64,000 bases of DNA, taken from an uncultured Acidobacteriota bacterium (GTDB lineage: Bacteria; Acidobacteriota; Thermoanaerobaculia; UBA5066; Gp7-AA6). Shown one piece after another: positions 5,122 to 40,662 of this stretch. The stretch spans positions 281,816 through 345,815 of the forward strand of contig CAWDEF010000001.1 of NCBI GenBank assembly GCA_963801275.1, given 5' to 3'. Both the position numbers and the translations under genes were made by a program. A model generated the notes under the pieces. The model worked only from the letters and a program-made list of their open reading frames with translations. It did not search any database and was not told where the DNA came from. Every line of letters starts with the position of its first letter. Within the stretch, counting starts at the first letter, position 1.

Positions 5122-5715
5122 GTGCCGATCGGAAACGGGTCCGAAAGCGACGGGTCGCGCGAGGACCGCGCGCTTCTGGAGCGCGTCCGTCAGGGCGATT
5201 CCGAGGCCGCGGCGGGGCTCTTCGAGCGTCACGCGCCTGCCCTGCTTCGCTTTACGGGTCGACTGCTTTCCGACCGGGCGCTGGCCGAGGAAGTGACTCA
5301 GGAGGTCTTCGTCAAGGTGATTGCCAGGGCCCATCAATATGACGGTCGGGCGGAGGTCGCTTCGTGGCTGTTCGCGATCGCGGCCAATGCCTGCCGGGAC
5401 CGCCGGCGGCGGGAGCGGCGAGCGCCCGTCGTTTCGATCGACGCTCTTCCCGAGCCCTCCGCCCGGGGCGAGGGCATCGAGGCCGCCCTCATGGACCGCG
5501 AAAAGCGCGACGCCGTCCGGCGCGCCCTCGCGCAGCTCTCGGAGGAGCAGCGGGAGGCGCTCGTTCTCGCCCGGTACCATGGCCTGGCGTACGTCGAGAT
5601 CGCCGCGATCCTGGGTATCTCCGTCGGGGCGGTGAAGACTCGCATTTTCAGGGCCGTCGAAACGCTGAAGGCCCATTTCTCCGAAGGAGCCACGTCATGG
5701 AATGCCGCGAACTAG
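5122..5715 (+). CDS. ECF (sigma-70 family, RpoE-like) RNA polymerase sigma factor
   Basis: Region 2 (EEVTQEVFVKV ... WLFAIAANACRDRRRRE) and region 4 (EQREALVLARYHGLAYVEIAAILGISVGAVKTRIFRA) are present. GTG at 5122 is in frame with ORF 4600-5715. The upstream part of that ORF overlaps the M50 gene and is taken as non-coding. Confidence 0.8.
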   Translation: MPIGNGSESDGSREDRALLERVRQGDSEAAAGLFERHAPALLRFTGRLLSDRALAEEVTQEVFVKVIARAHQYDGRAEVASWLFAIAANACRDRRRRERRAPVVSIDALPEPSARGEGIEAALMDREKRDAVRRALAQLSEEQREALVLARYHGLAYVEIAAILGISVGAVKTRIFRAVETLKAHFSEGATSWNAAN

Positions 5716-6635
5716 ACCAACGGGCCGTCGATCGCCTGACCGGGCAGATCGAGCCCGAGGCTGCAAAGGACCTCGCCGCCCACCTGGAGGTCTGTTCCGC
5801 CTGCCGCACTGAGATGTCCGGGGTGGAGCGCGCCTGGGAGTTCCTGGGGGAAGACCCGGGTCTGGCCGCCGGGCCGGACTTTCGCCGCCGGGGCCGGGAG
5901 CTGCTCGAGGAAGAGATGCTCCGCCGTCGCGTGCGCGAGTTCCGTCCGAGGCCGCGTGCGCGCCGCTTCCTGGCGCAGGCGGCGGCGCTTGTGCTCGCCG
6001 CCGGCGCGGGATACCTGGCGGCGTCCTGGAAGCCGGTGCCCGCGGTCCCGACTCCCGGCGCAGCGGCGGACTCCTCCGTGCTGCCCGCGCTCGGAGCGTC
6101 CACGCGGCTCTCGAACCTCTCCTACGTCCCGCCCGGCCCCGACGGCCGCGTCGGCATCGGCTTCGACGTGACGACCCGCCACACGATCCAGGGTGCTCCC
6201 GGTGATCCCGAGGTCGAGAAACTGCTCGCCTACGTGCTGTCGCGCGCCGGAGAGAACTCCGGCGACAGGGCCCGCGCCATCGAACTCGTGGCGCAGAACT
6301 CCCGGGCCGGGCTGGGGCCTGCATCCCCCGACATCGTGGCCGCGCTGACGGCCACCCTGCGCAAGGACTCGAATCCCGGCGTGCGCAAGAAGGCGGCCGA
6401 CGCCCTGTCGGGCATGCCTTCGACCCCCGAAATCCGGACGGCCTTCCTCGAAGCGCTGCGGAGCGACGGAAATCCCGCAGTTCGCCTGGTTGCGATCGAC
6501 GCTCTCGCTGCGGCGGCCAAAGAGGCGCCGGATCCGCGAACCATCCAGTCTCTGCGCGAGAAGGCGGTGGATCCCTTCGAGAACGGCTTCGTCCGCGCGA
6601 AGGCGGCATCCGCCCTGAAGACGATGGAGTACTGA
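5697..6635 (+). CDS. anti-sigma factor, zf-HC2 family, with C-terminal HEAT (PBS-lyase-like) repeats
   Basis: ATG at 5697 with a GAAGGAG RBS; overlaps the sigma stop by 19 nt. N-terminus MECRELDQRAVDRLTGQ...AAHLEVCSACRTE is the zf-HC2 signature. One TM segment (AALVLAAGAGYLAAS). C-terminal repeats of the type VRKKAADALSGM ... AVRLVAIDALAAA. Confidence 0.8.
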   Translation: MECRELDQRAVDRLTGQIEPEAAKDLAAHLEVCSACRTEMSGVERAWEFLGEDPGLAAGPDFRRRGRELLEEEMLRRRVREFRPRPRARRFLAQAAALVLAAGAGYLAASWKPVPAVPTPGAAADSSVLPALGASTRLSNLSYVPPGPDGRVGIGFDVTTRHTIQGAPGDPEVEKLLAYVLSRAGENSGDRARAIELVAQNSRAGLGPASPDIVAALTATLRKDSNPGVRKKAADALSGMPSTPEIRTAFLEALRSDGNPAVRLVAIDALAAAAKEAPDPRTIQSLREKAVDPFENGFVRAKAASALKTMEY

Positions 6636-6678: not shown

Positions 6679-8592
6679 ATGATGAACAGGCACACGCTCC
6701 GAGCCAAATCCCTCTCGTCCCGCGCCGCCACGGCGCAGAACCGCGCCCTCTGGCTTCTTTTGGCCGCGGGTCTGGGCCTGCTCGCCGCGGCGGTGGCGTC
6801 GGGCGAAGAACGCGGCTTCTCCGCGTCGCGCACCGACCGTTTTCGCGGGAACCTCCCGCCGGGCACACTCGTGCGCGTCGTCAATATCAACGGCGACGTC
6901 GTCGCCGGGTCCGGGCGTGAGTTTTCCGCCGTGGTCACGACGACGGTGATGGCCTCGAGCCAGGCGCGGGCAGACGAGGCGCTCGAGAAGGCCCGCGTGA
7001 CCCAGTCGAGCGAGGCGGAAGAGTACCGCCTCGAGACGCGGTGGCCCGGCCACACCCAGTTCCGCGGCCACCGAAAGGATTTCTGCCGGGACTGCCGGGT
7101 CACGGTCCGCTACGAGCTCGTGCTCCCGCCGGGCCTGTCGGCGAACCTGCAGACGGTCAACGGCGACGTGCGCGCCAACGGCCTGGACGGAGACCTCGAG
7201 GTCCACAGCGTGAACGGAAACCTGCAGGTGATCGGCGCGCGCCGGTCGCTCGCCGCGCAGACCGTCAACGGGAGGGTCGACGCCGTCGCGGCCGCCCTGC
7301 CGCCCGCCGCATCGTGGCAGCTCCAGGCGGTCAACGGCTCCGTCATCGCGACGCTCCCCACGGACGCGAAGTTCGATTGGACGGCTTCCACGATGAGCGG
7401 GACGATTGCGTCGACCTTCGCCCTGCCCCCCGCACGCGATGAAGCCACACCCGCCCCGCCGGCCGCGCCGGTGTCTCCCGCGCCGCCCCGCCGGCCGGCC
7501 CACGCAGCGGTCGTCGTATCCGGAGACGACACGGAAACGCTGGTCGACCCGGAGGAGCTCTCCCGGGAGATCGAGGAATCCATGCGCGAGGTGGAGGCGC
7601 AGATGCGGACGACGGAGAAGATCGTCCGCGAGGTGCGCGTGACCCTGCCGGAGCGGCGCTACACGGCCTCCGTCGGAGGGGGTGGCGCGAAGATCCGGGC
7701 GAACACGTTGAATGGAAGCATCACGCTGCTCGCCGCCGGAACGCGGGAGGCGGACGCCAAGCCGCTCGTCGTCGGCCGGCGCACGATCGTGCTGACGGTT
7801 CCGAGCGTCGCGATCCGCGTTCCCGGTGTCCGGATGCGTGCGCCCCGCGTCCGCGTACTGGCACCCTCCGGCATGGAGCCCGGCGACACTTCCGAAGACG
7901 GGCCGGAGATCGATGCCGACGTCGTGCGCGGAGACATCTCCGGAGACCTGATCTCGACGAGCAACGGGAACTACCACGTGGGCCACGTCAGCGGAAAGAT
8001 CAAGATCCTGACCCACTCCGGCGAAATTCACATCGCCTCGGCCGGAAACGGGGCGGAGGTGAAGACCTACGGCGGCGACATCCACGTCGGCAGCGTCCAG
8101 GGTGATCTGCGGGCCCAGACCATGGCCGGCGACATTCGCGCGCTGGACGTGAACGGCTCGGCGGTCGTGGAGACCTCGGGCGGAGACATCCGGATCAACC
8201 GGATCGAGGGATCTGCCAGCGCCAGGACGGGGGGCGGTGACATCGTTCTCCCGGCGGTGCGTGGGTCCGTCGAAGCCGAGACCGGCGGAGGCGAGGTGCG
8301 GGTGGGCATCCTTTCCCGGCAGGTCAAGAACGGTATCTCGATCCACAACGCCGGGGGCGACGTCTTGCTCATCCTGCCGGCGGATTTTCATGGAGAGCTC
8401 GATCTGGAGGTTGAGGGACCCGCGGATCCGGAAGAGGTCCTGATCCGTTCCGAGTTTCCCGGGGTCGCGATTACTCGCAGCAGCGACTTGCACCGCGCTT
8501 CCGGCCTCTTGAACGGCGGAGGCCCGCGCGTCCTCGTGCGGACCTCCTCGGGGTCCATTCGCCTGCGCCGGGGGCCCGCCGCCGGGTCTTAG
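6679..8592 (+). CDS. DUF4097 (putative adhesin / LiaF-like beta-helix) domain protein with N-terminal signal sequence
   Basis: Signal peptide (ALWLLLAAGLGLLAAAVASG). Many repeats of the type VNGDV, VNGNL, VNGRV, NGSI and GGDIR, characteristic of DUF4097. Co-oriented and directly downstream of the sigma/anti-sigma pair. Confidence 0.75.
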   Translation: MMNRHTLRAKSLSSRAATAQNRALWLLLAAGLGLLAAAVASGEERGFSASRTDRFRGNLPPGTLVRVVNINGDVVAGSGREFSAVVTTTVMASSQARADEALEKARVTQSSEAEEYRLETRWPGHTQFRGHRKDFCRDCRVTVRYELVLPPGLSANLQTVNGDVRANGLDGDLEVHSVNGNLQVIGARRSLAAQTVNGRVDAVAAALPPAASWQLQAVNGSVIATLPTDAKFDWTASTMSGTIASTFALPPARDEATPAPPAAPVSPAPPRRPAHAAVVVSGDDTETLVDPEELSREIEESMREVEAQMRTTEKIVREVRVTLPERRYTASVGGGGAKIRANTLNGSITLLAAGTREADAKPLVVGRRTIVLTVPSVAIRVPGVRMRAPRVRVLAPSGMEPGDTSEDGPEIDADVVRGDISGDLISTSNGNYHVGHVSGKIKILTHSGEIHIASAGNGAEVKTYGGDIHVGSVQGDLRAQTMAGDIRALDVNGSAVVETSGGDIRINRIEGSASARTGGGDIVLPAVRGSVEAETGGGEVRVGILSRQVKNGISIHNAGGDVLLILPADFHGELDLEVEGPADPEEVLIRSEFPGVAITRSSDLHRASGLLNGGGPRVLVRTSSGSIRLRRGPAAGS

Positions 8593-28704: not shown

Positions 28705-29307
28705 TCAATCCGAGTGGGAGGCTCCACCCGGAGAGGAAGGTTGTACGTTCGCGCTTCTCATTGCGGCCTCGATCCCCTCGGAAACCCAGATACGGAGCGC
28801 TTCGACCGCCCGGCCGACCGCCTCCTCGAAGTCCGCCCTCTCCGCGACGGCAAAGGGTTCGAGGACGTAGTCGCCCAGATCCCGCTCCCGGGTGTATCGC
28901 TCTCCGCGCACTCCCACCCGCAGGCGGGGAAAGTCGACCGTACCCAGGTGGCGGATGATCGAAAGCATGCCCTTCTGGCCCGCCGCCGAGCCCTGCGGGC
29001 GCATCCGCAGGGTCCCGAGCGGCAGATCGATCTCGTCGTAGACGACACAAAGATCCGAAGGTTCGATACCGCTGTTCTTGCAAAGAGCCAAAACCGCCTC
29101 CCCCGAGGCGTTCATGTAGGTCTGGGGAAGTGCCAGAAGCACCGACCTGCCCGCGACCGATCCACGTCCCACCCGCGCCCCGCTCTGGCGGGAGCGGATT
29201 CGGATGCCCTCCTTCGTGGCGAAGGCTTCGACGACCCGGAAGCCCGCGTTGTGGCGCGTGCTCTCATATCGGTCGCCCGGATTGCCCAGGCCGACGATTG
29301 CGCGCAG
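28705..29307 (-). CDS. pth: peptidyl-tRNA hydrolase; start codon uncertain (no ATG/GTG/TTG upstream of the conserved N-terminus)
   Basis: Conserved IVGLGNPGDRYESTRHNAGF ... PTTYMNASGEAV. The reading frame continues up to the rplY stop codon (TAG 29311-29313) with only CTG (29307) or ATC (29298) as possible initiators. Confidence 0.75.
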   Translation of the reverse strand: MRAIVGLGNPGDRYESTRHNAGFRVVEAFATKEGIRIRSRQSGARVGRGSVAGRSVLLALPQTYMNASGEAVLALCKNSGIEPSDLCVVYDEIDLPLGTLRMRPQGSAAGQKGMLSIIRHLGTVDFPRLRVGVRGERYTRERDLGDYVLEPFAVAERADFEEAVGRAVEALRIWVSEGIEAAMRSANVQPSSPGGASHSD

Positions 29308-29310
29308 GCG

Positions 29311-30033
29311 CTACTTCTCCTTCTTTTCCTTCTTTTCCGCCTTTTCGCCCTTCTCGGCCTTCTCCGGCTCGGCCGCCTCTTCCTCCGTCGCGACCTTGCC
29401 CTTCTTCAAAACCTCGGGTTCCGTGGGCTCGGCGGCCGCCTCGGCGGCGGCGACCGCAGGCTCCTTCTCCTGCGTCGGGTGCGCGACGTGCACCAGGACC
29501 TTCTCCGGATCATCCACGATGGTCACGCCCTCGACGGGTGGAAGGGCCGAAATGCGGAGCGCATCCCCGATGACGAGCGCGGTCACGTCGATCGGCAGAT
29601 TCGAGGGAATGTTGCCGGGCAAGCACTCGACCTCGACCTCGCGCGTGACGAAGTCGAGGATCCCGCCGTCGGTCTTGACGCCCTGTGCGATTCCCGTCAC
29701 TTCGATCGGCACCCGGACGCGGATCTTCGCGTCCATCAGGACTCTCACGAAGTCGATATGCAACGGCGCGCGCGACACCGGGTCCCGGGCGAACTCCCGG
29801 ATCATCGCGTGCCGAGACTGATCGGAGCCGGCGAGCCTCAGAAGGAAAATCGCGTTTTCGCCCGCGCCCGCACGGAAGGCGTCGGTCAGGGCCCGGCGCT
29901 CGACCTGGATGGGAACCGTGGGCTTTCCGGCGCCATAGATGACGGCCGGAATCTTCCCCTTTGCCCGCGAGCGGCGGGCCTCGTTCTTTCCGGTTTCTTC
30001 CCGGCGCTCGACGTTCAACTCGATCGTTTTCAT
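29311..30033 (-). CDS. rplY: 50S ribosomal protein L25 / general stress protein Ctc
   Basis: RREETGKNEARRSRAKGKIPAVIYGAG ... and a Lys/Glu-rich C-terminal tail. Confidence 0.85.
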   Translation of the reverse strand: MKTIELNVERREETGKNEARRSRAKGKIPAVIYGAGKPTVPIQVERRALTDAFRAGAGENAIFLLRLAGSDQSRHAMIREFARDPVSRAPLHIDFVRVLMDAKIRVRVPIEVTGIAQGVKTDGGILDFVTREVEVECLPGNIPSNLPIDVTALVIGDALRISALPPVEGVTIVDDPEKVLVHVAHPTQEKEPAVAAAEAAAEPTEPEVLKKGKVATEEEAAEPEKAEKGEKAEKKEKKEK

Positions 30034-31029: not shown

Positions 31030-31171
31030 GCGGAGAGGATCATAATCGTTCGGCTGCCGGCTGTCAGCCCTTCCCTCGGGAGCGGTCGGCGGGCGTACGA
31101 TGACGGGTCATCGGGCGAGCGGCCCGACGCTCCACAAGCGACGGACTGCCGGGTGTCACAGGCGCGCCCGA

Positions 31172-31599: not shown

Positions 31600-31675
31600 T
31601 GGCTGGGGCGCTAGGACTCGAACCTAGAAATGCCGGCTCCAAAGGCCGGTGCCTTACCAGTTTGGCGACGCCCCA
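31600..31675 (-). tRNA. tRNA-Gln (anticodon UUG)
   Basis: Minus-strand 76-nt cloverleaf TGGGGCG TC GCCAAACTGGTAAGGC A CCGGC CTTTGGA GCCGG CATTT CTAGG TTCGAGT CCTAG CGCCCCA GCCA. The anticodon loop CTTTGGA gives TTG. 7-bp acceptor stem. Confidence 0.85.
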
Positions 31676-31695: not shown

Positions 31696-34056
31696 TTACT
31701 GCCGTTTGCCCTGCAGGGCGGCGAGCTGGTCGCGCAGGCTGCGCGCTTCGGGATCCTCGGGATCGAGATCCAGGAGCTTCTGCGCATAGGTCGAAGCGGC
31801 GGGCAGGTCGCCGACTTTTGCGCTGATCGAGGCGAGGGCGACCAGAATTTCACGATTCCCCGTATGGCGGGCGTGCGCGGATGCCAGGACCTCGAGAGCC
31901 CGCCGCGTCTGGCCCGCCGAGTCGAGCGCCACGCCATACACATAGAGGTAACGCGCCCGCTCGGGCGGCAGCGTCGCCGCCTTCTCGAGTTCGATGAGGG
32001 CCTCGTCCTTTCGCTTGAGGCGCACCAGGGTCAACCCGAGCGCGTGGTGAAGGCCCGCGTCGCGCGGCGATCTCCGGAGACCCTCGCGGAGGACTCGCTC
32101 GGCGTCCGCGTCGCGCCCTTGGAGCCGGTAGAGGTCCGCCAGGTTCGCGTACCCGCCCGCCATGGCCGGCACGAGGCTCAAGGCCGTCTGGTACTCCTTC
32201 TCGGCGCGCGCGAGATCTCCCTGTTCGGCGTAGGCGTTGGCCAGAGCCAGGCGCGCCTCCGCGCGGTCCGCGTCGACTGAGAGCGACTGGACGTATTCGG
32301 CAAAAGCCCTCTCGAAGTCGCTGCGATCCGAGGAGTTCAGGCTCTCCTTCGGGACGCCCGCGAGCGCCCGCGCCGCCTCGATTCGGACCGTCAAGATGGG
32401 ATCGCGCAGCAGAGGAGCCGCGATCTCCAGCCGGTGCTCCGGCTGGAGAGACTCGACGGCGTGGAGGGCTCCGCTGCGTACCAGGGGATCGGGATCCCCG
32501 GCCGCCCGCGCGATCGCGTCCCGGACACCCTTTCCAGGCGTGCCTCCCAGCAACGACGCCGCCGTCGCACGCCGAATTCCAGGCTTTCGGGAGTCGAGGA
32601 CGAGGCGCTCGAGCAAGCTTCTCGCATCGGCCCGCTCCTGCCTGCCGGCCAGAATCGCTTCGCCGTCGGGAGGCTCCTGCCGGATCCGGTCACCCCACCA
32701 GCGCAGAGCGGCCTCGGAGGCCCACGCGTCGGAGCGTTTGCGATGGCACCCGGTGCAGGCGTTGGGCGTGCCGAGCGCCGCCGAGAGGTCCGGCCGGGGA
32801 ATCCGCATGCTGTGGTCGTGGCGGGCGTGCACGACCATGTAGTTGCGCGTCGGCATGTGGCAGGATACGCAGCGCGAGCCGGGCGATCCGACCTTGTGGA
32901 AGTGATGCGCAGGGGTTTCGAACTTTTCGGGCATGTGGCAGGCCGCGCAGACCCGGTCGCCCGACACCCGAACTTTCAGGTCGTGGGGATCGTGGCAATT
33001 GGAGCAGGTGACTCCCCCGGCGTACATCTTGCTCTGCAGGAACGAGCCATACTCGTAGACCTCGTCCTGAATCTGCCCGTCCGGAAAGTAGAGCCCTTCC
33101 TCGAGCAGCGCCGGCCGGTGCGTCTGCATGAGAGGCTGGCCATAGACGTAGTCGGCCGCTACGACCGACCGCCGGGAGTGGCAGCGCGCGCAGGTCTCGA
33201 TCTCGGCATGGGAGGTTCGGGGCGCGCTCCGCTTCGCAATACCGGTCTTCAGGTCGAACTCCCAGGTGGCCTTGTCGTGGTCCTTGAGCCCGACCGCCAG
33301 ACCCTTGTCGACACCGTCCTTGCGGGCCGTCCCGGCGCGGACCGCCTCGGCCCACGCGACGTGCGCCGAGCCGGGTCCGTGGCAGGCCTCGCAGGAGACG
33401 TTCAACTCGGACCAGGTCGTCGCGTAGCTGTCCGTCGCGGCGTCGTACCCCTTCTTCACGTCCGTCGAGTGACACTCCGCGCACATGAAGTTCCAGTTCT
33501 GGTAGGGGCCGGTCCAGTGAAGGGGATCCGTGTGAGGGACCTCCTCTGTCGGATAGAGGTGGAACCACCGCTGTCCACCCTCCCGCGCGGGACGCGTGTC
33601 CCAGCACACGTTCAAGGCTTGATAGCGGCCGCCGGGGAAAGGGATCAGATACTGCTGGAGGGGATACTCGCCGAAGGTGTAGGCGATGGGATATTCCGTC
33701 GGCCTTCCGTCGGGGCCGTCCGTGCGGACGAAGAACTTCCCGTCGCGCTTGAAGAAGGTCGTGGTGACCCCGAAGTGCGTGAAGCGCGCGTTGTCGAAGT
33801 TGCCGAGGACCGTCGTCGTGGTTGCCTCCTCCATGGCCAAATCGTGGTGAGATCCGCGCCAGCGCCGGTCCTCCTCGCCGTGGCAGCGCGCGCAGGCCTG
33901 CCGGCCGACGAACGTGGCGTCGTGAGCCAGAGGGGTAGGCGTTGCCGGAATCCGGCTCGGCGGTGGCGCCACGATCTCCCTCTCGCACGCGCCGGTCGCA
34001 AGCGCGAGAAAAACCCCGATCGCCCCGAGAGATCGCCGATCACGTGACGCGCTCAC
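31696..34056 (-). CDS. octaheme c-type cytochrome fused to HEAT (PBS-lyase-like) and TPR repeats; probable lipoprotein
   Basis: Eight CxxCH motifs (CARCH, CAECH, CEACH, CARCH, CSNCH, CAACH, CVSCH, CTGCH). N-terminal signal with LATGAC lipobox-like Cys. C-terminal HEAT repeats (PLVRSGALHAV ... LTVRIEAARALAG) followed by TPR repeats. Confidence 0.8.
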   Translation of the reverse strand: MSASRDRRSLGAIGVFLALATGACEREIVAPPPSRIPATPTPLAHDATFVGRQACARCHGEEDRRWRGSHHDLAMEEATTTTVLGNFDNARFTHFGVTTTFFKRDGKFFVRTDGPDGRPTEYPIAYTFGEYPLQQYLIPFPGGRYQALNVCWDTRPAREGGQRWFHLYPTEEVPHTDPLHWTGPYQNWNFMCAECHSTDVKKGYDAATDSYATTWSELNVSCEACHGPGSAHVAWAEAVRAGTARKDGVDKGLAVGLKDHDKATWEFDLKTGIAKRSAPRTSHAEIETCARCHSRRSVVAADYVYGQPLMQTHRPALLEEGLYFPDGQIQDEVYEYGSFLQSKMYAGGVTCSNCHDPHDLKVRVSGDRVCAACHMPEKFETPAHHFHKVGSPGSRCVSCHMPTRNYMVVHARHDHSMRIPRPDLSAALGTPNACTGCHRKRSDAWASEAALRWWGDRIRQEPPDGEAILAGRQERADARSLLERLVLDSRKPGIRRATAASLLGGTPGKGVRDAIARAAGDPDPLVRSGALHAVESLQPEHRLEIAAPLLRDPILTVRIEAARALAGVPKESLNSSDRSDFERAFAEYVQSLSVDADRAEARLALANAYAEQGDLARAEKEYQTALSLVPAMAGGYANLADLYRLQGRDADAERVLREGLRRSPRDAGLHHALGLTLVRLKRKDEALIELEKAATLPPERARYLYVYGVALDSAGQTRRALEVLASAHARHTGNREILVALASISAKVGDLPAASTYAQKLLDLDPEDPEARSLRDQLAALQGKRQ

Positions 34057-34060
34057 GCGC

Positions 34061-34936
34061 CTATCCGTCCTTGCGCCTGCCGTCGGTCAGGCCCCGGTAC
34101 TCGTCTCGTCGAAGCGTCCGGCAGTCGATGGCGCGCGCTCCCGGGTGGTCGGAGAGAAAGGCTTCGAGCTGCCGGGCACCCGCCTCGACCAGCACGACCG
34201 TCGATCCCGAGCCGCTGAGAGCGCACTCCCGCGCCATTGCACGCCCCCGCTCCAGATACTCCGCCATCTCGGGACGAACCGCGACGGCCGCTGTCTCGAG
34301 ATCGTTCGGCCCGAAGAAGCGGCCGCTCCCCTCGATCTCGAGAGTGGCGGGAGGCTCCGGCCCCCCGCCGATCCGGTCAAACGCGCCGTAGACCTCGGCC
34401 GTGGAGAGTGAGAAAGGCGGCACGAGCAGAACGAGACTCCGCGCAGGAGCGTCGCCGCGCGGCAGCACGATCTCGCCGCGGCCCGAAACGTCCGCCTCGC
34501 CGCCGGCCAGGAAGAACGGCACGTCACTGCCGAGCGAAGCGGCGAGCGCTTGAAGATCCGACTCGCCGAGCCTGCTCTCCCAGACACGGGAGAGCAGACG
34601 CAACGCCACGGCGGCGTCGGCGCTGCCGCCGCCCAGCCCGGCCCCCACGGGCACGCGCTTGACGAGACGCAGGCGCACCCGCGGCTCGATACCGAGCTTC
34701 TCCGCCAGCGCCAGCGCGGCCCGCGCCGCCAGGTTCGAACCGTCCGCGGGAAGCGCGTCGGGCTCGCAGGAGAAGGAGAAACCGTCGGCCGGCTCCGCCT
34801 CGAGCGTGTCGGCCAAATCGACCGCCGCAAACCGCGAGCGGATGGCGTGATAGCCATCTTTGCGGCGCGGGCCGACTCGAAGCTCCCGATTGATCTTCGC
34901 GGGCGCAGACGCCGACCAGGTCCCCCGCCGCGTCAC
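34061..34936 (-). CDS. ispE: 4-diphosphocytidyl-2-C-methyl-D-erythritol kinase
   Basis: APAKINRELRVGPRRKDGYHAI ... VPVGAGLGGGSADAA GHMP-kinase motif. GTG start at 34936 overlaps the upstream stop (GTGA). Confidence 0.85.
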   Translation of the reverse strand: MTRRGTWSASAPAKINRELRVGPRRKDGYHAIRSRFAAVDLADTLEAEPADGFSFSCEPDALPADGSNLAARAALALAEKLGIEPRVRLRLVKRVPVGAGLGGGSADAAVALRLLSRVWESRLGESDLQALAASLGSDVPFFLAGGEADVSGRGEIVLPRGDAPARSLVLLVPPFSLSTAEVYGAFDRIGGGPEPPATLEIEGSGRFFGPNDLETAAVAVRPEMAEYLERGRAMARECALSGSGSTVVLVEAGARQLEAFLSDHPGARAIDCRTLRRDEYRGLTDGRRKDG

Positions 34937-35601
34937 GACGCCGACTCCCGCGAAAGCATCCGAAGCTCGAGCCTGCTGCCCGATGCCTTCTCCCGAATCT
35001 CGATCGATTCGGGCCAGGGGTTTCGGAAATCTGAGAATTTCGCCTCGATCTCGCCGTCGGCGCGAGCGACGCGCAGGGAGCGCAGCCCTCTCTCGAGATC
35101 GAAGATCCCCTCGGCCGCATCGTCTCCGCTCCAGCGGAGCCGGACGCGGCCGCCCCGCTGCCCCTCGACGGTGGGTGCCACCCCAGTCCACGTGCCCGCC
35201 AGCAGGGCGCGGAGCTGACGGGCGGGAAGCGGTATGGGACGCAGCTTTTCGCCGCGAAGCTTCCCATCGGCGTAGGTCGCAATTGGGGCGCCGAAGGGGC
35301 CCGCCAGTGTCGCGTCCACCCGATCGCCGCGCAGGCGCACCGCGAGCGTCCCGTGCATCTTGAGCAGCCCCTGGGACACGGAGGCCTCATACAGCACATT
35401 CGCCGAGGCCTCCGGTTCGGCGCGCGCCACGGCCGCCCGCCACGCACTCTCTGCCGCAAGCGCCTGCTCGACCGACACGGGGGCGAAGCGCGCGCAGGCG
35501 GCGCAAGCGGCGAGTAGAAGGACGAGGACGCCCGCGCGCGCCGCGGCAGGCCACCGCACGACTCGCTCCCCACGGCGCGGGGTGTCGATACCCGCTCGCA
35601 C
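34933..35601 (-). CDS. LolB-like / DUF4292-like outer-membrane lipoprotein
   Basis: Signal plus lipobox (LLLAACAAC); ~220 aa. Its position immediately upstream of ispE matches lolB-ispE-prs synteny. Confidence 0.55.
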   Translation of the reverse strand: MRAGIDTPRRGERVVRWPAAARAGVLVLLLAACAACARFAPVSVEQALAAESAWRAAVARAEPEASANVLYEASVSQGLLKMHGTLAVRLRGDRVDATLAGPFGAPIATYADGKLRGEKLRPIPLPARQLRALLAGTWTGVAPTVEGQRGGRVRLRWSGDDAAEGIFDLERGLRSLRVARADGEIEAKFSDFRNPWPESIEIREKASGSRLELRMLSRESAS

Positions 35602-37524: not shown

Positions 37525-37680
37525 TCCGACACTCTAGCATTCTCATGGTTGCCGCGCATGCACGCGGCGGCTGTGCGCGGGATATGCTGCGCGGTCCCGA
37601 GAAGACCGGATGCCCAGCCGTCTGCTTTCTGCCGCCTCGCCTCCCACCTTCGACGCCTGCGCGATAATCGGAACCCAGGA

Positions 37681-39105
37681 ATGACACGGTTGGGTCAACT
37701 CCTCGTCCGGGCCGATCTCGTCTCGGAGAACCACCTGGCCCGCGCGCTGGGCGTCCAGCACTTCGCCGGGGGCCGAATCGGCACCCTGCTGCTCGAGCGA
37801 GGCGTTCTGCACGAGGACGACCTGGGACGAATCCTCGCGGAGCAGCACGCCTGCGAGTTCGTGCCCTGGTCGGTCCTCGCCAACGTGACACCGGCGGCGA
37901 TCGCGGCGCTTCCCGCGAAGTTCGCGATCCGTCACTCGGCGGTCCCCTACGACCGCGGCGAAGGGTTCCTGCGGATCGCGCTGCGAGACCCCTCGGATCT
38001 GCGGATTCTCGACGAGCTCTTCTTCGTCACGGGGCGGAAGATCGTTCCTGGCGTCGCGCCGGAAGTCCGGATCTTCCAGGCCCTCGAGAAGTACTACGGC
38101 GAGCGCCGAACGCCGCGCTACGCCATCCTGGCCGAAAAGCTGTCCCGCCTTTCGAGCCGTCCCGCCGCGCACGCCGTCGGCCTTCCGCCGCCTCCGGCGT
38201 TCTTCCCCGCCACGCCGCCCCGGCCCCCTTCCGCCCCCGAACCTCTCGAGGGAGCCGAAGGAGGCAACCCCGAACTGACACCGGCCGTGAAGATGCCGGA
38301 CGCGCCTGTAACGCCCTGGGCGCCGGTGACCCCGGCCCCCGGCGAGGCCTCCGAGCCGGAAGAGGAAGTGATCTCGTGGGAGGAGCTCTCGCCGCCTTCG
38401 CTCTGGATTCCGGCGCCGATCGAGACCGAGAAGGTGCCGGCGGCCACCCCGCGCTTGCCGCCCCCTCCGGCTCCGACCGCACCCCCGGCAGCGCCCGGGC
38501 CCCGCCCGTCAGCGTCGCGTGAGCCGACTCCGCAGCCCTCTCCCCCTCCGGTGCCGCCCCCGCCACCCGCTCTGGCGCCTGTTGCCCGTGCGCGGGTCCC
38601 CCCTCCGGCCGGCGCCATGCGTTTTGCGTCAGAGACCTTCGACTTTCCTGACGTTCTGGCGGCACGGGATCGCGGAGCCGTCGTGGCGCAGACCCTGCTC
38701 GCGCTCTCCCACCGCTTTCCACGCGTGGCCGTCTTCGGCTCCAAACCTGACCGTGTTTCGGGACTGGCGGCAACGGGCAAGGGCGTCAATTCCTCGAAGG
38801 TGGGGGCGATCGAGATTCCCTGGAGCGAGCCCTCGGTCTTCTTGAACGTACGGCTCTCGCGAGCCTTCTACCTCGGCGCCTTGCCGCCGCTGCCCCGACA
38901 CCGCGTGATCTCCGACACGATGGGTCGCCCGGCCGAGGAGTGCGTCGTGCAGCCCGTCTGGATGAAGGAAAAGCCGGTTGCGTTCCTGTACGCGGAGTTC
39001 GACCCGGACCGCGGAGCGACGCCGATGGACCTGGCCTACCTGCGGGGACTCGCCAGTGCGGCCGCCACCGCGCTTGCGGCCTCCATCCGGTCGAAGCGGG
39101 CGTAA
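37681..39105 (+). CDS. MshEN / T2SSE_N-domain protein with Pro-rich linker and conserved C-terminal domain of unknown function
   Basis: N-terminus RLGQLLVRADLVSENHLARALGVQ-HFAGG-RIGTLLLERGVLHEDDLGRILAEQ matches the tandem 24-residue MshEN c-di-GMP-binding motifs (RLGxxLLxxGLIxxxxLxxxLxxQ). Long PPPAP-rich linker. C-terminal ~150 aa is homologous to the C-terminus of the 39431 gene. Confidence 0.7.
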   Translation: MTRLGQLLVRADLVSENHLARALGVQHFAGGRIGTLLLERGVLHEDDLGRILAEQHACEFVPWSVLANVTPAAIAALPAKFAIRHSAVPYDRGEGFLRIALRDPSDLRILDELFFVTGRKIVPGVAPEVRIFQALEKYYGERRTPRYAILAEKLSRLSSRPAAHAVGLPPPPAFFPATPPRPPSAPEPLEGAEGGNPELTPAVKMPDAPVTPWAPVTPAPGEASEPEEEVISWEELSPPSLWIPAPIETEKVPAATPRLPPPPAPTAPPAAPGPRPSASREPTPQPSPPPVPPPPPALAPVARARVPPPAGAMRFASETFDFPDVLAARDRGAVVAQTLLALSHRFPRVAVFGSKPDRVSGLAATGKGVNSSKVGAIEIPWSEPSVFLNVRLSRAFYLGALPPLPRHRVISDTMGRPAEECVVQPVWMKEKPVAFLYAEFDPDRGATPMDLAYLRGLASAAATALAASIRSKRA

Positions 39106-39132
39106 TATAATTTCCGAAACTCCGGAGGAGCG

Positions 39133-39402
39133 ATGATCAAGGCGGACATCGTCGATCTCGTTGTCGATCGGGCGGCCGTAGCGCGGGCAAAGGCGGCCAC
39201 CGCCGTGGAGACCGTCATCGAATCGATGCGGTCCGCGCTCGGCGCGGGGGATCGGATCGAGCTGCGCGGGTTCGGGGTCTTTCAGGTCAAGCGCCGCAAG
39301 CGCGGAATCGGCCGAAATCCGAAGACGGGCGTCGAGGTCACGATCCCGCCCGGCAACACGATCCGTTTCAAGCCGGGCAAGGACCTTCGCGACCTCCAGT
39401 AG
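39133..39402 (+). CDS. HU/IHF family nucleoid-associated DNA-binding protein
   Basis: ELRGFGVFQVKRRKRGIGRNPKTGVEVTIPPGNTIRFKPGKDL, the conserved HU/IHF arm and body. GGAGGAG RBS. A TATAAT-like hexamer at ~39108-39113 just upstream. Confidence 0.85.
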   Translation: MIKADIVDLVVDRAAVARAKAATAVETVIESMRSALGAGDRIELRGFGVFQVKRRKRGIGRNPKTGVEVTIPPGNTIRFKPGKDLRDLQ

Positions 39403-39430
39403 GCCGCGGCCGCTAGGATCGGAACGGCGC

Positions 39431-40636
39431 ATGCCGTCGGCCCGGATCGGCGAGTACCTGGTCGCCCAGGGCCTCCTGACGACGGCGGCCATCAATCGTG
39501 CCCTCGGTTATCAACGCTCGGCGGCGCCGCGCGTCAGGCTCGGAAGCATCCTTCTCACCTGGGATCTCCTCTCGGAGGGCGAGCTGCTTCGGGCCCTGGC
39601 CGCCCTTCACCGCTGCGAAGCCGTCACCGGCGCCATGCTCGCGGGAGCGTCGGTCGATGCCGTTCGCATGCTTCCCGCGTCCCACGCGGTCCGGCTGAAC
39701 GCGCTGCCCTACGCGCTTGAGGAATCGCGCATCCGCGTGGCATTCGTCAACCCCTCCGACCTGAGCGTCCTCGACGAGGTTTCCGCATTGACCGGACGCC
39801 CCTGCCGGGCGGGAGTCGCGACGGAGCTCCGGCTTCTCCAGGCGCAGCGCCGGTTCTACGGGCGCGCGATCCCCTTCGAACTGCGCCCGACGCTCTCCCG
39901 AACGACCGCGGGAGCCGCGAGCCTCTCGGTGGGGGTCTCGCCCGCCCATCCCCTGCCCGCCGTACCGGTGCCCATCGGCGGCGGGCCCTCCGGTGGAGCT
40001 GCCGATGCCGCTTCGATCCGCGTTCCAGACCTGCCGATTCCCCCGCCTCCGCCTGCCCGGCCGCCGGGGGACGCCATGACCGCCCCTCCGGCTCCGGAGG
40101 CATGGCGCACCGACGGCGACCCGGAGTCGATGTGGCTCGCCTCCGTGCCCGAGCCGGCCCTGAGCGAGGCCGCCGAGGCAATGTGGTCCCCCGGCCCCGT
40201 GTCCGCACGGGAGCCTGGAGAGAGCGTCGCGGATCTCGCCCTCGAGGCGGTTCCCGCGGAGTTCCCGCGGGCCATTCTCCTTCTGGCCGAACGGGGCGGC
40301 GTCCTGGCCGGGTGGCGCGCCAGGGGAGTCGCATTGCCCAACGTGGCATCGCTCCGCCTGTCGACAGCGGAGCCATCGGTCTTCGCAGCCGTCGTCTCCA
40401 CGGGAACCCCGCACTTCGGACGCGTGGATCCGGAGCTCTGGCCCCATGCACTGTCGCGCCTCTTCGACGGCCCTCCTCCCTGCGCCGTCTTCCCGGTCCA
40501 GTCCGGACGCGGCGTCTCGGCGGTGCTCTACGCCGACCGGCGCGGCGCCCCCTTGCGATTCGAGGACACCGCCCTGCTCGCGCGCGCAGCGGCCCGGATC
40601 GCGTCCCTGTTGGCGCGCGGGTCTTCGGCAAGCTGA
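39431..40636 (+). CDS. MshEN / T2SSE_N-domain protein, paralog of 37681-39105
   Basis: N-terminus RIGEYLVAQGLLTTAAINRALGYQ-RSAAP-RVRLGSILLTWDLLSEGELLRALAAL has a perfect first MshEN motif and a near-perfect second. Pro-rich linker. C-terminal domain shares FPR ... EPSVF ... LYA blocks with the paralog. Confidence 0.7.
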   Translation: MPSARIGEYLVAQGLLTTAAINRALGYQRSAAPRVRLGSILLTWDLLSEGELLRALAALHRCEAVTGAMLAGASVDAVRMLPASHAVRLNALPYALEESRIRVAFVNPSDLSVLDEVSALTGRPCRAGVATELRLLQAQRRFYGRAIPFELRPTLSRTTAGAASLSVGVSPAHPLPAVPVPIGGGPSGGAADAASIRVPDLPIPPPPPARPPGDAMTAPPAPEAWRTDGDPESMWLASVPEPALSEAAEAMWSPGPVSAREPGESVADLALEAVPAEFPRAILLLAERGGVLAGWRARGVALPNVASLRLSTAEPSVFAAVVSTGTPHFGRVDPELWPHALSRLFDGPPPCAVFPVQSGRGVSAVLYADRRGAPLRFEDTALLARAAARIASLLARGSSAS

Positions 40637-40662
40637 TACCTCATCCCGCGGGCGTGAGATAA

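Follow-up and report, generated by a model that had tools for sequence, protein, structure and literature searches.

An OcwA-related octaheme cytochrome c with a HEAT/TPR solenoid at a lineage-specific position between ispE and tRNA-Gln in an uncultured member of the Acidobacteriota

In a stretch of 64,000 nucleotides from an uncultured bacterium of the phylum Acidobacteriota (contig CAWDEF010000001.1, assembly GCA_963801275.1; the whole stretch is called the window in the following), a gene for an octaheme cytochrome c, which continues into HEAT-like repeats and tetratricopeptide repeats (TPRs), lies between ispE and the gene for tRNA-Gln. Its heme domain shares homology with OcwA, an iron reductase, its heme motifs are conserved in a very large family, and it is under purifying selection at a position which it occupies only in the window and in the closest relative. 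With moderate confidence we read the product as a functional, exported and lipid-anchored eight-heme protein of the OcwA/MccA/c554 clade, in which a solenoid would take the place of a helix bundle and dock a partner, and which would be expressed as part of a housekeeping operon.

The open reading frame (ORF) of the cytochrome, 31696-34056 on the reverse strand, is intact over 786 residues from a GTG start codon (Table 1). It contains eight CxxCH motifs (C55, C192, C222, C289, C351, C370, C396 and C434), and shuffled sequences of its own composition (n = 20,000) contained on average 0.017 and at most one of them. Sixteen of the 18 cysteines are part of these motifs, the remaining two being C24 of the lipobox and C151. 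The ORF is the sole carrier of CxxCH among the ORFs of the window whose GC content at the third codon position (GC3) is of the coding type, and its GC contents at the three codon positions (0.69/0.51/0.84) resemble those of neighbouring and other host genes. Pfam yielded matches to generic domains only, namely multiheme families above cut-off in the N-terminal half (Cytochrome_C7, Cytochrom_c3_2, Cytochrome_C554), HEAT_2 at residues 488-566, which was barely above its cut-off (28.0 versus 27.7 bits), and several TPR families at residues 575-785 (TPR_2, 59.5 bits). No NCBIfam model reached its own cut-off. The N-terminus, MSASRDRRSLGAIGVFLALATGA followed by C24, combines a positively charged stretch with a hydrophobic region and a lipobox, where GVFLALATGA-C24 matches a lipobox pattern of the PROSITE PS51257 type. 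Judged by these features, which are also present in homologues, the protein is predicted to carry an export signal and to be a bacterial lipoprotein. Motif count, Pfam matches and lipobox confirm what an earlier note on this DNA had described, i.e., a lipoprotein with eight CxxCH motifs, HEAT repeats and C-terminal TPRs.

A search with the full-length cytochrome yielded >8,000 relatives. Its best 120 matches (all E ≤2e-276) are about 750-800 aa long and have an identical domain set. A search with the heme domain yielded 2,162 clusters (50% identity, E <1e-30), mostly of 740-810 aa. The family is spread over at least ten phyla, with genome matches in Acidobacteriota (Thermoanaerobaculia, Vicinamibacteria), Gemmatimonadaceae, Methylococcales including the isolate Methylomonas lenta, Burkholderiales, Thiobacillus, Woeseiaceae, Phycisphaerae, Rhodothermales, Verrucomicrobiae, Dadabacteria and others. 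Conservation of the CxxCH motifs in orthologs had been named beforehand as a check, and the motifs turned out to be invariant: in 237 homologues (40-71% identity) the 16 Cys and 8 His residues of the motifs are conserved to 97-100%. Conserved in the same homologues are seven His residues outside the motifs (H71, H180, H232, H358, H384, H387, H415) and four Met residues (M75, M344, M401, M407), and the invariant R496, R527 and R558 mark three HEAT-like repeats by their spacing of 31 residues. A conserved Cys outside the motifs was not found among these homologues, neither C24 nor C151 being kept family-wide. Exactly eight motifs are present in 214 of 219 full-length homologues and a lipobox in 110; the lipobox Cys is kept in the closest acidobacterial clade, and it is missing from the signal or anchor sequence of more distant members. 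The window cytochrome is a typical member of this abundant family. The fusion of cytochrome, HEAT and TPR parts, whose rarity the earlier note had implied, is the usual architecture within a huge family (>2,000 clusters of the same length, eight hemes).

OcwA of Thermincola was the best sequence, profile (E 1e-13) and fold match of the cytochrome, at an identity of about 14-18%. The structural scores are low in absolute terms, as the AlphaFold2 (AF2) model of the heme domain is an apo model (predicted local distance difference test, pLDDT, 73) and such models are poor for multiheme domains. The alignment is collinear: motifs 1-4 correspond to OcwA hemes 1-4 and motifs 5-8 to OcwA hemes 6-9, with motif 5 (GVTCSNCH) pairing with OcwA heme 6 (GVTCQVCH), and no counterpart of OcwA heme 5 (CLKCH) is found in the cytochrome. 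According to this alignment, the loss of OcwA heme 5 gives an MccA-like eight-heme core. In the published structures, OcwA hemes 1-4 and 6-9 superimpose on MccA, where the active site lies at heme 2 (PMC6703420; Soares et al.), and a beta-sheet domain after heme 1 (OcwA aa 75-156) is common to both proteins (PMC6703420).

OcwA is a nonaheme protein of the cell surface of Thermincola potens (PDB 6I5B). As in the cytochrome, where it is predicted, a beta-sheet domain lies between its hemes 1 and 2, and CHM and SH(L/S)M motifs surround heme 7/8. Of its two catalytic His pairs, H380/H381 is aligned by H384/H385 of the HHxHK motif of the cytochrome, and to H281/H282 no counterpart could be aligned. 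Unlike the cytochrome, OcwA has nine instead of eight hemes, ends in a three-helix bundle in place of the HEAT/TPR solenoid of about 340 residues, and is a Gram-positive cell-wall protein rather than a (predicted) diderm lipoprotein. Of the features that unite OcwA and OmhA as clade 3 of the NrfA superfamily, the cytochrome has the collinear similarity in sequence and fold and a predicted beta-sheet domain after heme 1, but neither both catalytic hemes (2 and 5) nor nine or more hemes nor the three-helix bundle. OmhA from the S-layer of Carboxydothermus ferrireducens (PDB 6QVM) is an undecaheme protein with an extra N-terminal two-heme extension and without a solenoid. The octaheme sulfite reductase MccA/SirA (PDB 4RKM) has a CX15CH heme motif and a Cu-binding Cys pair, both absent from the cytochrome, which also lacks neighbours of the mccB/C/D type; as all its eight motifs are CxxCH and no extra Cys is conserved, an identity as MccA is ruled out. 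The region around heme 1 matches c554 (PDB 1FT5/1BVB; E 2-4e-4), which differs in having four hemes only. A weak match to NrfA was obtained over hemes 5-7 (E 1e-3). NrfA itself, with five hemes and a CxxCK active site, is likewise ruled out, since the similarity is marginal and the cytochrome contains no CxxCK. The relatives of the heme domain are, by these sequence comparisons, OcwA, OmhA, MccA and c554, i.e., the c554/MccA/OcwA/OmhA clade of the NrfA superfamily. The comparators that had been suggested before, NrfB, NapC and OmcA, did not fit (TIGR03146 for NrfB, 16.7 versus 166.6 bits; TIGR03507 for OmcA/MtrC, 15.7 versus 209.3 bits; no match to NapC), and the DmsE model also stayed far below its cut-off (30.9 versus 192.2 bits).

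In the reading that we favour, the product would be an exported c-type cytochrome with a lipid anchor at Cys24 and eight covalently bound hemes, most likely located on a membrane and facing the periplasm. The C-terminal helix bundle of the clade would be replaced by a rigid solenoid, which comprises three HEAT-like repeats and about six TPRs in some 340 residues and would dock a partner, and the heme chain would move electrons to or from this partner protein or a substrate held nearby. Several points weigh against this picture. Heme binding, export and lipidation are predictions, the partner of the solenoid is putative, and inner membrane, outer membrane and cell surface are all possible locations. 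No gene for a redox partner, a quinol dehydrogenase or another cytochrome is present in the 64-kb window. In addition, the consensus used for the promoter and terminator scans described below is of the E. coli type and may miss acidobacterial signals, so that the gene might have a promoter of its own. The previous statement that the architecture suggests an electron-transfer complex rather than a soluble carrier was too strong, as a catalytic role is equally possible.

It is conceivable, though on balance unlikely, that the protein is chiefly an enzyme, with a five-coordinate heme 2 reducing a small oxyanion of nitrogen or sulfur (nitrite, hydroxylamine, sulfite or tetrathionate) and the other seven hemes feeding electrons, as in OcwA, MccA and c554. 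The motifs align with just those OcwA hemes that superimpose on MccA, including the active heme 2 (PMC6703420; Soares et al.), and a pocket for an anion could be built by the invariant Arg-rich motifs (R295/R296, R412-D414-H415, R421). Among the hemes of OcwA, six are bis-His, one is His/Met and two are open. The seven invariant His residues outside the motifs and an invariant Met would suffice for this set of six bis-His and one His/Met hemes, and one His would be left over. These residues are thus compatible with an OcwA-like pattern in which heme 2 is open, but they would also permit eight six-coordinate hemes. Moreover, the HH281/282 pocket over heme 2 of OcwA has no clear, alignable counterpart, and neither the catalytic Cys pair and CX15CH motif of MccA (no Cys outside the motifs being conserved) nor a CxxCK motif is present.

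A role as an extracellular reductase, the physiological function proposed for OcwA and OmhA, appears improbable. It would fit with these surface iron reductases being the closest solved relatives, with the predicted lipoprotein nature of the cytochrome, and with the position of the gene beside genes for outer-membrane beta-barrels (Porin_O_P, OmpA) in related Acidobacteriota. Clusters for extracellular electron transfer (EET) in Dethiobacter, moreover, pair homologues of OcwA/OmhA with separate TPR proteins (PMC10376724). However, a porin-cytochrome module, a periplasmic cytochrome or a quinol oxidase is neither found near the gene nor consistently in 82 homologue loci, the family is present in many aerobes (Methylococcales, Burkholderiales, Gemmatimonadaceae), and surface exposure cannot be predicted from sequence.

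The surroundings of the homologues (loci numbered L in the following) point to another possible connection. In close acidobacterial relatives the cytochrome gene is flanked on one side by sulfatase-HAD-Porin_O_P-(uncharacterised lipoprotein) and on the other by AI-2E transporter-OmpA-RuvC-YebC. The sulfatase is of the Cys type (active site SCTAGR), and a homologue of it lies within 10 kb in 28 of the 82 cytochrome loci. In Gammaproteobacteria, Burkholderiales, Deltaproteobacteria, Verrucomicrobia and Acidobacteriota (L080, L082, L058, L053, L072, L037) it is the immediate and co-directional neighbour, often with a gene for a HAD hydrolase in between. The family could hence work together with the sulfatase and a secreted HAD hydrolase, be it as an electron sink, as a maturation factor or within an island for sulfur or phosphorus scavenging, with the window copy as a displaced member. 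We assign very little probability to this idea: in the reverse direction only four of 50 metagenome loci of the sulfatase subfamily that had 3 kb or more of flanking sequence contained the cytochrome (HAD was found in 13 of 80 fetched loci), many cytochrome loci contain no sulfatase, and the window contains neither sulfatase nor HAD nor related module genes. An obligate partnership is not supported by this reverse test; the two genes occur together more often than by chance, but not of necessity. A similarly low probability is given to the wider proposal that the TPR-fused octaheme proteins form a large overlooked c554/MccA/OcwA branch with a new periplasmic activity, the solenoid holding a protein substrate or partner and the adjacency of sulfatase and HAD reflecting sulfatase-linked redox chemistry or nutrient scavenging.

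As separate observations on these loci, a sulfatase-(HAD)-octaheme-TPR cassette recurs across phyla (L080, 4934-10172; L072, 6938-12267; L082, 879-5335; L058, 211-4667; L053, 8311-12361; L037, 4722-8511), with sulfatase and HAD forming a tighter unit than sulfatase and cytochrome. Ten acidobacterial loci have a gene for a predicted lipoprotein of ~480 aa immediately upstream of the cytochrome and in the same direction (L002/L005, 8580-10004; L004, 8532-9980; L018, 7374-9980). This lipoprotein has a C-terminal hydrophobic segment and no match in Pfam or NCBIfam, and its gene did not accompany the cytochrome into the window locus.

The position of the cytochrome gene, as judged from the comparison with relatives, is derived and lineage-specific. 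In four relatives the corresponding string is free of the cytochrome and reads TPR protein-lipoprotein-ispE-tRNA-Gln-(small ORF)-prs-ctc-pth-rpsF-rpsR. These are a contig from JGI, L088, L086 and L089, with ispE being 69%, 65%, 63% and 60% identical, respectively; in L086, tRNA-Gln begins 12 nt after ispE and ends 34 nt before prs. The metagenome-assembled genome MAG243 (JBLMXY01) contains the empty junction on L088 and a homologue of the cytochrome on another contig (L020), beside a sulfatase. Up to a distance of 10 kb from the homologue, none of the 82 loci contains ispE, tRNA-Gln, the lipoprotein gene, prs, ctc or pth. Directly after ispE the cytochrome gene was found only in the closest relative, L083 (ispE 84% identical), where signal peptide and heme 1 are encoded in frame upstream of the called start. 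The insertion between ispE and tRNA-Gln, which the earlier note had proposed, is therefore borne out by four relatives without and one with the gene at this site. The cytochromes of the window and of L083 share 85% identity in an ungapped alignment of 564 residues, with a ratio of non-synonymous to synonymous substitutions (dN/dS) of 0.14, which argues for a functional gene rather than a pseudogene; the frame disruptions of a pseudogenised insertion, for which it was advised to look, are absent.

The closest homologues share 75-78% identity with the heme domain and are genes of Acidobacteriota that lie at the sulfatase/porin locus. The parsimonious explanation is therefore a relocation of a resident gene, or its duplication with a subsequent loss, once the lineage with 69% identical ispE had split off; that the gene was imported from a distant lineage is less probable. 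A single gene copy would accordingly have moved, in the lineage of the window and its closest relative, into the 12-nt ispE/tRNA-Gln junction without its usual neighbours. A search for repeats revealed no att-like duplications, insertion sequence (IS) elements or integrase traces around the insert, the repeats reported being words that encode CxxCH. That a decaying or silent passenger was dropped into the operon by recent transfer, as the four relatives without the gene might suggest, is contradicted by the intact ORF, the ungapped and constrained copy in the closest relative with all motifs kept, a GC3 of 0.84 like that of host genes, and the lack of flanking repeats, IS elements and integrase remnants, and can practically be dismissed. 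As the TPR protein and the lipoprotein encoded upstream are ancestral housekeeping neighbours and the cytochrome is the newcomer, a functional complex with them is not indicated. The locus represents a clean and datable case in which an essential operon captured an accessory redox gene, although on present evidence the rearrangement answers no long-standing question.

The four genes between 37524 and 31696 are separated by 15 nt, a 4-nt overlap (of the ispE start with the upstream lipoprotein gene) and 4 nt. The last of these gaps, between ispE and the cytochrome (TAG-gcgc-GTG), had been given as 5 nt before. A Shine-Dalgarno-like AAGGA is located 9-13 nt upstream of the GTG of the cytochrome. 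Scans with E. coli-type consensus sequences revealed no terminator-like site between ispE and tRNA-Gln, and the sole promoter match was found just upstream of prs. By this arrangement, co-transcription of the cytochrome with ispE appears plausible, and the relocated gene would probably be read within the housekeeping transcript of TPR protein, lipoprotein and ispE. As the tRNA directly follows ispE in relatives, operon transcription that reaches the tRNA must now cross the cytochrome gene.

In our view, the family rather than the single locus is the useful point, as it constitutes an abundant group of eight-heme proteins with a broad phylogenetic spread and with homology to OcwA, an iron reductase. 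In the databases its members are named just "tetratricopeptide repeat protein", "TadD" or "PilF". An identity as PilF/PilW/TadD, as implied by the names at JGI, was rejected: TIGR02521 scored 60.8 bits against a cut-off of 154, and those proteins have no heme domain. No pilus genes were found near the cytochrome, and the names reflect generic TPR similarity. The public calls of the window gene (P0001, 712 aa), of the L083 copy and of at least six other members start at the conserved internal Met75. This start cuts off signal peptide and heme motif 1 (residues 1-74, 33835-34056 in the window; 6144-6368 in L083) and gives the impression of a systematic error in start calling throughout the family. 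Owing to TPR-only labels and to starts without signal peptide and heme 1, surveys of electron transfer in soils and sediments would miss or undercount the family. Relatives of OcwA and OmhA have been called "very poorly represented" in the literature. No paper describing the octaheme-TPR fusion was found in the literature searched, and as far as these searches reach, the family is both uncharacterised and undescribed.

Table 1. Features of the cytochrome gene and its neighbours (positions in the window; +, forward strand; -, reverse strand)
Feature	Position	Strand	Remarks
Octaheme cytochrome c/HEAT/TPR lipoprotein (predicted), coding sequence, 786 aa	31696-34056	-	Start GTG; stop TAA at 31696-31698
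Predicted signal peptide and lipobox, residues 1-24, LATGA-C24	33985-34056	-	From sequence; lipobox Cys kept in acidobacterial clade
Heme domain, residues 44-482, OcwA-like	32611-33927	-	Invariant motifs; OcwA homology
CxxCH codons	33880-33894, 33469-33483, 33379-33393, 33178-33192, 32992-33006, 32935-32949, 32857-32871, 32743-32757	-	
Beta-rich domain, heme 1 to heme 2, residues 85-166	33559-33804	-	AF2 strands 88-166
Three HEAT-like repeats, residues 488-568	32353-32595	-	HEAT_2 match; family-wide invariants; helices with pLDDT >88
TPR solenoid, residues 575-785, about 6 TPRs in 12 helices	31702-32334	-	Pfam; predicted structure
ispE, 291 aa	34061-34936	-	TIGR00154, 141.2 bits versus cut-off 138.7; identical to P0271
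Conserved lipoprotein, 222 aa, at LolB's position in proteobacteria	34933-35601	-	Kept in L083, L084, L086-L089
TPR protein, 635 aa	35617-37524	-	First gene of conserved string; found in all relatives
tRNA-Gln(UUG)	31600-31675	-	20 nt downstream of cytochrome stop
Conserved hypothetical protein, 131 aa	31185-31580	+	Opposite strand, between tRNA-Gln and prs; GC3 0.85; ribosome-binding site (RBS) AAGGAGG; homologues
Sigma-70-like promoter match, CTGACA-17-TATGAT, 10/12	31039-31067	-	Just upstream of prs; consensus match only
prs, 318 aa	30073-31029	-	Followed by ctc/rplY at 29311-30033, then pth

The lipoprotein encoded upstream of ispE had been named LolB-like on account of its position in the string of Pseudomonas aeruginosa, which we take to be the same (TPR protein, lolB, ipk, tRNA-Gln, prs, ctc, pth). 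The likeness is confined to this position: the protein has a lipobox, but no match in Pfam, NCBIfam or PDB, and a PDB search with a profile of six sequences recovered neither LolB nor any other protein. An Rfam scan from 28 to 38 kb yielded nothing but the tRNA. The 131-aa gene between tRNA-Gln and prs contains no Pfam domain; 88 homologues of it (60-87% identity) occur in Acidobacteriota, Gemmatimonadota and Methylococcaceae. Its position is also filled in L089 (7992-8390) and in the JGI contig, but not in L086 or L088, and the gene is thus a second lineage-variable insert at the ispE/tRNA-Gln/prs junction. In the case of pth, the conserved N-terminus (AIVGLGNPG...TRHNAG) is encoded upstream of the first ATG, GTG or TTG, at 29173-29310 on the reverse strand, ahead of the ORF 28705-29172. 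Translation probably starts at a CTG (29305-29307) that lies three bases behind the stop codon of ctc, with the AAGGAG at the end of ctc as RBS; the pth call in L088 begins at the equivalent position.

Farther away in the window, the ORF 5364-6635 on the forward strand ends in HEAT_2 repeats (41.8 bits). The earlier note had regarded the product of 5697-6635 as an anti-sigma factor with the same type of HEAT repeat as the cytochrome. The repeat family, a generic one, is indeed common to both, while the identity as an anti-sigma factor is unsupported, the Pfam scan having revealed no anti-sigma domain. The ORF downstream of it (6679-8592) contains a DUF4097 "toastrack" domain. On the other side of the operon, two genes for MshEN-domain proteins surround a HU/IHF-like gene (39133-39402) at 37600-40650 on the forward strand, divergent from the TPR gene, and this arrangement is syntenic in L083, L084 and L086-L089.

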